Source: Malacoraja senta (lineage: Eukaryota). Taken from it: a stretch of 60,000 nt of DNA. A program made the translations under genes and the position numbers. The first letter of the stretch is position 1. Each line of letters starts with the position of its first letter. The notes below the pieces were generated by a model, which saw only the letters and a list, made by a program, of their open reading frames with translations, was not told the origin of the DNA and searched no databases. The stretch is from positions 6,574,001 through 6,634,000 of the forward strand of contig CM075992.1 in assembly GCA_038087875.1 (NCBI GenBank). The letters are read 5' to 3'. Positions 41,744 to 46,685 of this stretch are shown here, piece after piece.

Positions 41744-44700
41744 TCAGCAGGGCCGGTTCAGAGCCGCTATAGCTCTTGGAATAAAGCTGTTTCTGAGTCT
41801 GGAGGTTCGGGCGTAGAAGGCCTTGTAACGTCTGCCGGAGGGAAGTAGTTCAAACAGTCCGTTACAAGGGTGTGATGAGTCCTTATGGATGCTGACGGCC
41901 TTCCTGAGGCACCGTGTGTGGTAGATGCCCTCCAAGGCTGGTAGCTCTGTCCCAATGATCCTCTGCGCTCTGTGGACGATGCGTTGAAGAGCTCTCCTCT
42001 CCGCCTCCGTGCAGCTGAGATACCACACAGAGATGCCATACGTTAATATGCTCTCTGTGGTGCAGCGGTAGAACATTGTCAGCAGCTGTTGGGGCAGACC
42101 AGTCTTTTTTAATGTCCTCAGGAAGAACAGTCGTTGCTGTGCCTTCTTGACCAGCGCAGCGGTGTTGGTGGACCATGTGAGGTCCTCTGAAATGTGAGTG
42201 CTCAGAAACTTAAAGCTGGACACTCTCTCCACACTTTCCCCGTAAATGGAGATTGGGGCGTATTCTCCATTATGGGACCTCCTGAAGTCAATAATCAGCT
42301 CCTTGGTCTTGGAGGTGTTTAATGACAAGTTGTTATGAGCGCACCAGTCCGCCAGGTTCTGCACCTCCGCTCTGTATTTTGTTTCATCACCGTTGGTGAT
42401 CAGCCCAATCACTGTTGTGTCGTCTGCAAACTTCACGATGGTGTTGGTGTCGAATGCAGGGACACAGTCATGAGTGAAGAGGGAGTAGAGCATGGGGCTT
42501 AGTACACAGCCCTGTGGTGTGCCGGTGCTCAGGGTGATAATGGAGGACAGGTGCGGGCCCAGTCTCACTACCTGCGGTCGCTCCGTCAGAAAGTTCAGGA
42601 TCCAATCGCATATCGGCGAGCTGAGGCCTAGCTGGTGGAGTTTGGTGGTGAGCTTGGTGGGGATGACCGTATTGAATGCAGAGCTATAGTCAATGAAGAG
42701 CATCCTCACATACGTGCCCTGTCTGTCCAAGTGAGTCAGGACAGTGTGAAGAGCCAGAGAGATGGCATCCTCTGTTGATCTATTTGCCCTGTATGCAAAT
42801 TGATGGGAGTCCAGTGAGGCAGGGATGCTGGATTTGATATGGGAGAGGACCAGCCTTTCGAAGCACTTCATTGGGATTGGAGTTAGGGCAACCTGGCGGT
42901 AGTCGTTCAGGTTGGTGACTTTGGACTTTTTCGGCACCGGCACTATGGTGGCTGTTTTCAGGCACTTGGGGACCGTTGCCAGAGATAGAGACAGATTGAA
43001 GATTCTCGTGAATACCTCCGCCAGCTGTACAGCACAGTCCTTTAGTACCCTTCCCTGGACTCCATCCGGGCCTGCAGCCTTGCGTGGATTGATCCTACGC
43101 AGAGCGCACTGTACCTCCTGGGTGCTCAGTGTTAAGGCCTGTCCCTCCGCCAAAGAAGATTTTTAAAAAACTCGACTCGGATATCACTAATTTTATATGG
43201 GACTATAAATCACATAGAATACAAAAAACTCATCTGAATAAACCTAAAGTATTAGGGGGTTTAGCACTACCTAATTTTATGTATTATTATTGGTCAGTAA
43301 ATATTAAAAATATGATTCAACTGATGGATAACTCCGCCCAGCAAGTGGACTGGATTGTAATGGAGAAAGAGGATTGCTCCTCTAGAAACATTGGAGTGAT
43401 CCTCCTCTCTCCAATGAAATTGAATAACATAAATTATAATAAGAACCCAATTATTCATAGTACAATCCGAATTTGGAAACAAATAAAACAAAATTTAAAA
43501 TTAAGAAATTTATCACTTTTATTACCTATAGTCAATAACCCTTCGTTTAATCCTTCTATTATAGATAAAGCTTATACACAATGGGATAGATTAGGAATTA
43601 AAACGCTTGGTGACTTGTATGAAACTGGAAAATTACTTTCATTTCAACAATTACAAATAAAATATAAACTCGGAAATAATCAATATTTTAAATATTTTCA
43701 AATATGCGACTATTTGAAAAAATATACAAAAGATCATCATAATAACCCAGTAGATGTACTGGACGAGGCAATGCAGATAAAAGCGGAATCAGCAAACTTA
43801 ATATCATATTTGTATAATATTATCTTAAATGTACAAATACCATCTACGGAGGGTATCAGAAGAGACTGGGAACAAGAGTTAGCTATTAAAATTTCAAAGG
43901 AAAGTTGGAATGAATACTTATTAAACGTGCATAAATGTTCGATTAATGTAAGACACACTTTAATACAATTTAAAATTTTACATAGATTATATTATTCGAA
44001 AACTAAAATTCATAAAATTTTCCCAAATGTATCATCTATTTGTGATAAATGTCAATCCCAAGAAGCTACCATATCGCACTCATTCGTTTCTTGTACAAAA
44101 ATTCAAAAATTTTGGAATGAAATTTTTGAAATCTTTACAAAGTTATTTAAAACAAGACTGATACCCAAAGCAGAATGGATTATCTTCGGTATAACGGAAG
44201 ATGGTCCAGAACTAAATGTGTTTCAAAAGAAACTAATGGACTATGGGTTAATAATTGGAAAAAAGCTAATTCTAAAATTTTGGAAGAAGGCTCCAATACC
44301 AACTATAAATATGTGGATTTCAAATATGTTTGAAACATTACACCTAGAAGAGATAAGACTCCTCCTAGCAGGTAAACCAGATCACTTCCACCTGACGTGG
44401 TCTGCATTTATAGAATTATTACAAACATAGGGTGCAAAAGTACTTAAAAAAAATTGAGGTCAGGTAAGGGGGGATGATAGTTGAAGAGTTGGTATGTCCC
44501 ATTTACGTAATGCTCATAAAAATATTTGTTTCTCTCTTTTTCCTCTTTCTCTCTCTCTTTCGTTCCTAGGGTCTATTTCTTAACTCTTTTTCTTTTGTTT
44601 TTAATTTTGCTCTTATAGGGTCTTCGTCCTTTTTGTTGCCACATTTCCTACACTTTCACTTTTTCCTTCACTTTCTTCTTTCTTTCAATCTTTTCCTTTT

Positions 44701-46685
44701 CTAGTGTAAAAAATAAATGGAGTACATTAATTGTAAGAAGATATAAATGACGAGTACTAATGTATGTGGTTGTAATGTAATGTACTTCTAATAAATAAAA
44801 AAATAAAAAATAAAATAAAAAAAAGAAAGTTCAGGATCCAATCGCATATCGGCGAGCTGAGGCCTAGCTGGTGGAGTTTGGTGGTGAGCTTGGTGGGGAT
44901 GACCGTATTGAATGCAGAGCTATAGTCAATGAAGAGCATCCTCACATACGTGCCCTGTCTGTCCAAGTGAGTCAGGACAGTGTGAAGAGCCAGAGAGATG
45001 GCATCCTCTGTTGATCTATTTGCCCTGTATGCAAATTGATGGGAGTCCAGTGAGGCAGGGATGCTGGATTTGATATGGGAGAGGACCAGCCTTTCGAAGC
45101 ACTTCATTGGGATTGGAGTTAGGGCAACCTGGCGGTAGTCGTTCAGGTTGGTGACTTTGGACTTTTTCGGCACCGGCACTATGGTGGCTGTTTTCAGGCA
45201 CTTGGGGACCGTTGCCAGAGATAGAGACAGATTGAAGATTCTCGTGAATACCTCCGCCAGCTGTACAGCACAGTCCTTTAGTACCCTTCCCTGGACTCCA
45301 TCCGGGCCTGCAGCCTTGCGTGGATTGATCCTACGCAGAGCGCATTGTACCTCCTGGGTGCTCAGTGTTAAGGCCTGTCCCTCCGTCATGGCCGGGGTTA
45401 TTCCACTCCTGGCGGTGTTGCCAGTTTCGAACCGGGCAAAGAAGGTGTTTAGTTCGTTGGCCAGTGTGATATCACCGTGGGGGCAGGCGGGGCTGCTCTT
45501 GTAGTCGGTGATGTCCCTGACACCCTGCCACATGCTTCTGGTGTCCGTGGTGTTGAAGTGGTCTTCTACCCTTTGCCTGTGGATGTCTTTGGCCTTTTTT
45601 ATGCCTCTGTTCAGGTTCGACCTGGTCGCACTGTAAGCAGAAGTGTCCCTGGATTTAAAGGCATTGTTGCGTGCCCTTAGCATATCCTGAACCTCCTTGT
45701 TCATCCAGGGTTTCCGGTTTGGGAACATCTTTATTTGCTTGTCCACTGTGACAGTCTCCACACAGCAGTTGATGTAGGAGAGCACAGTGGATGTGTACTC
45801 CTCTAAGTCTACCTCTGTACCACTGGTAGCCTGTTGTGCAAACAGGTGCCAGTCGGTGCCATCAAAGCAATCCTGGAGTTGTCGGGTGGCGTCCTCGGGC
45901 CATATTTTGACCGTCCTTATTGCAGGTTTGGTCTTGCGGATGAGGGTTTTGTATGCAGGCAGTATAAACAGTGAGAGGTGATCGGATTGTCCCAGGGATG
46001 GGCGGGGGAGAGCTCTGTATGCGTCCTTGATGTTGGTGTACACTTTATCCAACGTGTTTGAGCCCCTGGTAGGGCAATGCACATGCTGATGGAATTTGCG
46101 GAGTGTGGCTCGTAGGTCGACCTGGTTAAAGTCCCCTGCAACAATGAAGGCACCGTCGGGGTGAGCATCCTGCTGCTTACTGATGGCCGGGTGCAACTGT
46201 GCTAGTGCTAGGTTAGCATTAGCCTGTGGTGGGATGTATATGACCATGATGATAACCACAGTAAACTCCCGAGGCAGGTAAAACGGCCTACATTTAAGCA
46301 GTAGGTATTTCAGGTCTGGGGAACAGTAGCTCTCTACTGCAGTGTGGTTGGTGCACCAGTCATTGTTGATGTAGATGCAGAGCCCGCCACCCTTGCTCTT
46401 ACCGGAGTCCTTTTTTCTATCAGCACGATGCAGTGACCGGTTGGTCAGGTCCACAGCCCCATCGGGAACCAGCGCGCTGAGCCAGGTCTCTGTGAAGATC
46501 AGCACACAGCAGTCTTTCAGGGATCGCTGGGTGTTGATCCAGAGCCTTACCTCATCCATCTTGTTGGTGAGTGACCGGACATTCGCGAGGAAGACGCTTG
46601 GTAGCGATGGTCTTTGTGGAGCCCTCCGTAGCCTGTCCTGCACCCCCGCTCGCTTTCCACGTTTCTGCTTTCGCTCCCGGTGCAA
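41744..46685 (-). mobile_element. Young Rex1/Babar-type LINE (APE + RT), interrupted by L1 with internal duplication
   Basis: ORFs 44757..46694 (NVRSL, FTETWL, AGDFN, SDH) and 41744..43153 ([31 protein letters not shown]); no stops apart from the insertion. Confidence 0.93.
43153..44823 (+). mobile_element. 5'-truncated L1/Tx1-clade LINE
   Basis: Open ORF2 C-terminus (GGLALPNF..YY, QFKILHRLY, CDKC..ATISHSFVSC..IQKFW) to stop at 44430, pyrimidine-rich 3' UTR, AATAAA and A-rich tail. Confidence 0.93.

Follow-up and report, generated by a model that had tools for sequence, protein, structure and literature searches.

Integration of a LINE (long interspersed nuclear element) of the L1 clade usually leaves a short target-site duplication (TSD); the question raised by the present locus is how an L1 came to lie between two nearly identical copies of more than half a kilobase of its own target. 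The locus is part of a 60,000-nucleotide stretch of the genome of the skate Malacoraja senta (assembly GCA_038087875.1, contig CM075992.1, forward-strand positions 6,574,001 to 6,634,000), which is called the window here and to which all positions refer. At 42588–45388, a Rex1-type LINE is interrupted by a 5′-truncated L1 with an A-rich tail, and a segment of the Rex1-type element stands on each side of the L1. We consider one L1 insertion the most probable origin of this structure (probability roughly 0.62), with the L1 5′ end attached some 560 bp beyond the initial nick through a distant second nick or sister-templated copying. The initial annotation had proposed an L1 insertion with a long duplication. 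The sequence supports one L1 in one Rex1-type copy and fits a second nick as well as a repair-templated route.

Geometry of the duplicated segment

The repeated segments lie at 42588–43152 and 44824–45388. In an ungapped comparison at an offset of 2236, 563 of 565 sites were identical, and BLAST aligned the same 565 nt at 99.646% identity (E = 0), which bears out the near-perfect repeat with two differences described initially. The sole mismatches (43109/45345 and 43150/45386) are both C/T, and each falls in the final 44 bp of that copy which precedes the L1; the one at 43109/45345 is a synonymous change in a Gln codon. Among the self-BLAST pairs listed for the whole window at 88% identity or more, this pair was the only repeat longer than 200 nt.

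The unbroken match covers 562 bp (42588–43149) and includes one mismatch. The three following bases (43150–43152) are best read as L1 sequence, being a proline codon of the L1 frame. Because these bases also begin the L1, the duplication proper would measure 562 bp and not 565 bp, with copy 1 at 42588–43149 (reverse transcriptase coding sequence of Rex1) and copy 2 at 44824–45385, extending to 45388 with the junction bases. The target sequence itself carries two of the three junction bases.

For comparison with related elements, contigs from four of 23 sequencing runs (X1, X18, X19, and X20) were aligned to positions 41100–44853. These are short-read contigs from which rare variants drop out, so that an unseen allele is not necessarily absent, and 40 of 223 variant rows were listed, so that counts of private sites are lower bounds. 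Run X18 comes from this species or one very near to it; its flank contig (depth 34.5) showed one difference in 358 letters, and it gave no cover at 41656–41706. Rex1 contigs of run X20 follow the window through 43151 and then diverge, and the target may therefore have had all three junction bases when the L1 arrived. The 5′ junction has a microhomology of 2–3 nt, and the duplication can be given as 562 bp with one difference or as 565 bp with two. A 23-base L1 pattern, with which L1 bases upstream of the 5′ junction were sought, had no match in the metagenome contigs.

Cutting out the insert together with either copy restores a minus-strand frame that stays open for 904 codons (about 900 had been claimed). 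The exact order of copy, L1, and copy and the open frame support a single L1 insertion with a long duplication. No short TSD nested at either junction was found, and the L1 is flanked by 562 bp in place of the about 7–20 bp of a canonical L1. On the bottom strand, the unfilled site reads TTCT/GA, between 42587 and 42588, a degenerate endonuclease-type site. The pattern YYYY/RR, which the 3′ junction fits, matches 46 of 2,706 positions of the host bottom strand, and a stricter cleavage pattern, written after the site was seen, matches six of them; the chance frequency of such a site is 0.2–1.7%.

The inserted L1

The insert (43150–44823) is 1,674 bp long and, on the plus strand, comprises (i) 426 open codons of a 5′-truncated remnant of open reading frame 2 (ORF2; 43150–44430), beginning at about residue 838 of about 1,266; (ii) a 3′ untranslated region (UTR) after the ORF2 stop (44431–44789); and (iii) AATAAA with an A-rich tail, together 34 nt (44790–44823), which abuts the target. 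The truncated, A-tailed L1 that had been annotated between the copies is thus present. Its ORF2 remnant matches the C-terminal third of proteins with endonuclease (EN) and reverse transcriptase (RT) domains. Identity to 32 full-length homologs of this kind, most of them 1,260–1,295 aa long with Exo_endo_phos and RVT_1 domains, was 26–47%, and the closest named relatives of the L1 protein, at 61–81% identity, are from little skate. The two closest relatives covering the 5′ junction read LPK there, and Pro occupies the junction residue in 16 of the 32 longer homologs. A zf-RVT match in the remnant (E = 5.8e-5) lay below the Pfam cut-off. None of the hits among the ORF2 homologs bears the name L1; we take the element to be an L1 from its architecture. 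In every feature tested except the short TSD, the insert looks like a 5′-truncated product of target-primed reverse transcription (TPRT) of an L1-clade LINE.

Contig depth over the L1 was several-fold above that over Rex1 in X18 and X19. For the L1 3′UTR, depth was high in these two runs only and low or zero in X1 and X20. This pattern, in which depth is not to be equated with copy number, hints at a recent, lineage-restricted expansion.

The window holds another short L1, at 10470–10975, which had been described as a related element (10483–10962) with a 13-bp TSD. The TSD is there, with 12 of 13 bases matching (10470–10482/10963–10975), and some 6 bp within it can be aligned with L1 ORF2 as well, which amounts to a 5′ microhomology. 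The element is only 67–77% identical to the inserted L1 (67% between their 3′UTRs); it therefore belongs to a different subfamily and is a weak control.

The host Rex1-type element

Both flanking parts of the host LINE are on the minus strand. The 3′ part of its ORF (41744–42587; Pfam RVT_1 and ALKBH8_N) encodes the C-terminus of the RT and an ALKBH8_N-like domain and ends with a stop codon at 41744–41746. The 5′ part (45386–46679; Pfam Exo_endo_phos and RVT_1) encodes an apurinic/apyrimidinic endonuclease (APE) and a linker and is itself 5′-truncated. The best homolog (P0033) is 59% identical, and named homologs are mostly teleost elements. No hit among the homologs is named Rex1; we assume a Rex1-type element from motifs and architecture. 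The APE endonuclease lies upstream of the RT in a single frame, as in the ORF architecture by which Rex1/Babar elements are defined (PMC6274825; PMC13343379).

Homologs reach about 50–100 residues further in the N-terminal direction (25 shown of 67 long homologs), and the host LINE lacks about 50–95 N-terminal codons. At its other end it stops at its own stop codon, and the Rex1/Babar 3′UTR with a terminal oligonucleotide repeat was not found there. Single-copy contigs of two related organisms align with 41572–41743 and continue off the stretch for 425 and 618 letters. As they leave the window at 41743, these organisms probably have no Rex1 at this locus, and the host copy has no 3′UTR. No convincing TSD was detected for the host element: the longest word common to its end zones has 5 nt, and a wider scan returned a 10-mer and shorter matches, none of them in register with the ends. 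For a doubly cut element (41744 and about 46679) with no TSD, the likely causes are that it was captured at a break or that a deletion followed later. Together with the long duplication, this truncation may represent two aberrant events at one locus.

In the Rex1 part, nine of the 14 listed variant rows have another letter at 96% of depth or more in both X18 and X19, and as far as the contigs tell, these nine variants are private to the locus. Truncated at both ends and bearing at least nine private changes in 1,406 bp, the host copy is young but dead and is not a source element. The earlier statement that both elements look recently active fits their families, but not this Rex1 copy.

Proposed course of the insertion

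In the proposed mechanism, L1 ORF2p would have nicked the bottom strand of the Rex1-type LINE at TTCT/GA, and 1,674 nt of L1 RNA would have been reverse transcribed from the A-tail. The microhomology of 2–3 nt would then have served to join the cDNA to a 3′ end of the top strand that lay about 562 bp downstream of the nick, where about 15 bp is usual. Two origins of this 3′ end are conceivable: a distant second nick, followed by fill-in of the gap, or a joining that was preceded by elongation of the upstream end on the sister chromatid. Both routes would leave 562 bp on each side of the L1, and the product would have been inherited. The resulting L1-duplication structure has no function; it is a scar.

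Two further candidates were tried and rejected. A TGTT/AA site lies in copy 1, 16 nt short of its end, but does not qualify as the second nick, since the duplication would stop at 43133. A 3′ transduction does not agree with the locus, as copy 2 is not followed by an A-tail and the parts stand in the wrong order.

Several observations weigh against a single insertion. Among the contigs listed (15 of 207 joints, 24 of 2,911 loose ends, and 32 of 242,008 pieces), none from the four runs crosses either junction. Private alleles of the window at 42202, 42322, 42730, and 42894 were unseen in X18, from whose contigs rare variants drop out. One difference in 562 bp would equally be expected of two alleles, judged by the X18 flank, and the rival explanations predict it equally well. 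In addition, the L1 seems to predate the duplication by a little, its private sites numbering at least 4–7 in the rows listed. Finally, inherited human L1 insertions nearly all have TSDs below 30 bp (PMC4805530).

Alternative explanations

The ages of the parts bear on whether one event or two took place. Four of the 12 listed L1 rows differ from at least 98.8% of the family depth in X18 and X19, and three more differ from 91–97%. Private change therefore amounts to at least 0.24–0.42% for the L1, compared with at least 0.64% for Rex1 and 0.09–0.18% per lineage for the duplicate copies, with overlapping 95% intervals; as rough ages, the three are ordered and compatible. In a binomial test, simultaneity of insertion and duplication was not rejected at 4–7 private L1 sites (p = 0.10–0.53). 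It would be rejected at 11 or more such sites for the 562-bp reading (p = 0.018) and at 15 sites (p = 0.003–0.011).

These figures leave some room for an unlikely two-step history. A normal L1 insertion with a short TSD would have been followed by a break at the L1 5′ end, repaired from the still-segregating empty homolog; the left end would have invaded that homolog, been extended on it for about 550 bp beyond the site, and been reconnected to the L1 through microhomology, making copy 1 the other allele. The final sequence would be identical to that of a single insertion. Such a history would suit the contrast between the L1, with at least 4–7 private sites over about 1,655 bp, and the copies, with one or two differences between them, the clustering of both differences at the end of copy 1, and the resemblance of one difference in 562 bp to the allelic distance in the X18 flank. 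However, one junction would have to have undergone two rare events, the present counts of private sites are compatible with a single event by the clock, and one of the two differences is accounted for by L1 sequence.

An assembly artefact is likewise improbable. Here, a heterozygous L1 would have been mis-joined, the empty haplotype running 562 bp past the site and meeting an L1-haplotype contig that starts inside the L1. The lone single-nucleotide polymorphism (SNP) in 562 bp fits heterozygosity, and neither junction is among the read-derived contigs listed. On the other hand, the window contains no N, no frameshift breaks the long frames on either side, features of TPRT mark the 3′ junction, and the microhomology at the 5′ junction is common in 5′-truncated L1s (PMC4245944), although none of these points is decisive.

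Much further removed is an origin from two independent Rex1 copies, by two insertions or by recombination between two L1s that sat in different Rex1 copies at a spacing of 562 bp. Nested insertions are common, given the abundance of both families in the related runs, but the copies have in common two alleles that are nearly absent from the family, 42730 A and 42894 T. At 42730, the other letter makes up 100% of the depth in both X18 and X19; at 42894, it makes up 100% in X18 and 99.7% in X19. The T at 42894 places Gln at an invariant site, which is Pro in 108 of 108 motif-matched homologs (12 of 120 had no motif match). Moreover, the host Rex1 differs from its family at nine or more of 1,406 sites, whereas copy differs from copy at one of 562. 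Two shared rare alleles point to descent from one genomic Rex1 that was already mutated, and hence neither independent insertions nor paralogue recombination is any longer a serious rival. The diagnostic SNPs by which two insertions were to have been recognized thus favoured a single locus, and two independent Rex1 insertions are effectively excluded; not strictly so, since the contigs drop rare variants and a tiny Rex1 subfamily with both alleles is conceivable. Hardly credible is a 562-bp tandem duplication that arose first: it gives the same order of parts, but the L1 would have had to land bluntly on the one exact joint and should have left its own short TSD, for which the longest common word is 4 nt.

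Comparison with known systems

Long TSDs are documented for L1 in cell culture. Engineered human L1 in HeLa and nucleotide excision repair (NER)-deficient cells gave duplications that include 407, 503, 516, 552, and 614 bp; those above 100 bp never exceeded 10% of HeLa events but made up 57–91% in NER mutants, for which a distant second nick was offered as a model (PMC5223499). With these events, the present locus shares the A-tail, the endonuclease-type site (TTCT/a is among the recovered human inserts), and a duplication of hundreds of bp. It differs in that those were de novo insertions of human L1 in culture, whereas the L1 considered here is native to a cartilaginous fish and comes from a genome assembly. 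Tandem duplications linked to L1 in cancers and L1-induced clones have also been read as large TSDs, with break-induced replication or sister-chromatid bridging as the mechanism offered for tumours (bioRxiv 10.1101/2024.12.14.628481; PMC7058536). There, too, the L1 sits at the duplication joint, but those cases are somatic, human, and 1–10 kb to 22.6 Mb in size, whereas the present one has 0.56 kb and is apparently inherited. Another fish LINE with a long TSD is zebrafish ZfL2-2, which left 1,228 bp in one of 25 insertions in wild-type chicken DT40 cells (PMC2666801), although it is of the L2 clade and was studied in culture in a foreign host.

Heritable insertions with flanking duplications of 100 bp or more are known for other elements: Dualen-4b of Chlamydomonas with a median TSD of 900 bp (PMC9977147), rotifer R9 with 126 bp (as cited in PMC9977147), and HERV-K with 250 and 111 bp (PMC5488345). 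Dualen and R9 have restriction-like endonucleases and HERV-K is a long terminal repeat element. In Dualen and R9, the long TSD is a family trait, whereas for the inserted L1 a single locus is known.

Canonical L1-clade insertions, zebrafish included, show a TSD peak at 13–15 bp (PMC4245944). The present L1 resembles them in 5′ truncation, A-tail, endonuclease site, and microhomology at the 5′ joint, but its TSD is about 40 times as long. In humans, most insertions in a long-read population set have TSDs of 10–20 bp (PMC12350158), and an appendix on human L1 states that large TSDs were seen at an appreciable rate only in HeLa; they have been argued to be a peculiarity of these cells or chimera artefacts (PMC4805530, Appendix 1). 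Genome surveys, however, have mostly limited the lengths considered: one gathered only TSDs of 5–30 bp and urged in vivo study of longer ones (PMC2912911), and another set the TSD at 5–25 bp (PMC12016303). No inherited vertebrate L1 with a duplication of comparable size was found in the literature searched, which left most subscription papers and supplements outside.

Other features of the window

Elsewhere in the window, a plus-strand exon without a Pfam hit (33739–34212) is directly followed by a plus-strand frame (34287–34805) whose UBA-like domain matches the N-terminal part of TDP2 (E = 0.0004). We take the exon to be RFX1-like, while the frame may be a nested TDP2 paralogue or retrocopy. 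A Pfam scan of 110 plus-strand frames gave no match above the cut-off, which leaves the host gene context unconfirmed. At 39914–41262, a GC-rich minisatellite with an 18-bp period (40872–41050) and a 38-bp duplication lie between 28-nt inverted repeats that are separated by 1.3 kb; the whole may be a non-autonomous element. A further LINE on the plus strand (15912–19016), presumably CR1-like, has an EN frame of 459 codons and an RT frame of 515 codons, with one break. Decayed minus-strand frames at 4218–7999, with RT/RNase H and recombinase-like pieces, are presumably DIRS-like and are accompanied by an 80-bp inverted match at 100% identity (3716–3795/3940–4019). At 57358–57725, a unit of about 183 bp is duplicated in tandem, the two copies being 95% identical.

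Significance

The locus probably adds a further, rare case to an outcome already known, the L1 insertion with a long TSD; as such TSDs are a documented product of L1, the event is rare and not unprecedented. It is doubtful that this skate L1 family, or the skate germline, regularly generates long duplications in the way that Dualen and NER-deficient cells do. If it did, L1 insertion would be an overlooked source of inherited vertebrate duplications of 0.1–5 kb, overlooked because surveys cap TSDs at 25–30 bp. As a single locus, the structure has no visible effect on the host. The L1 is nested in a repeat of known family sequence, which makes the target reconstructable and datable and, with that, a genome-wide count easy. 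A verified inherited case from a cartilaginous fish would show that the long-TSD outcome passes through a normal vertebrate germline.

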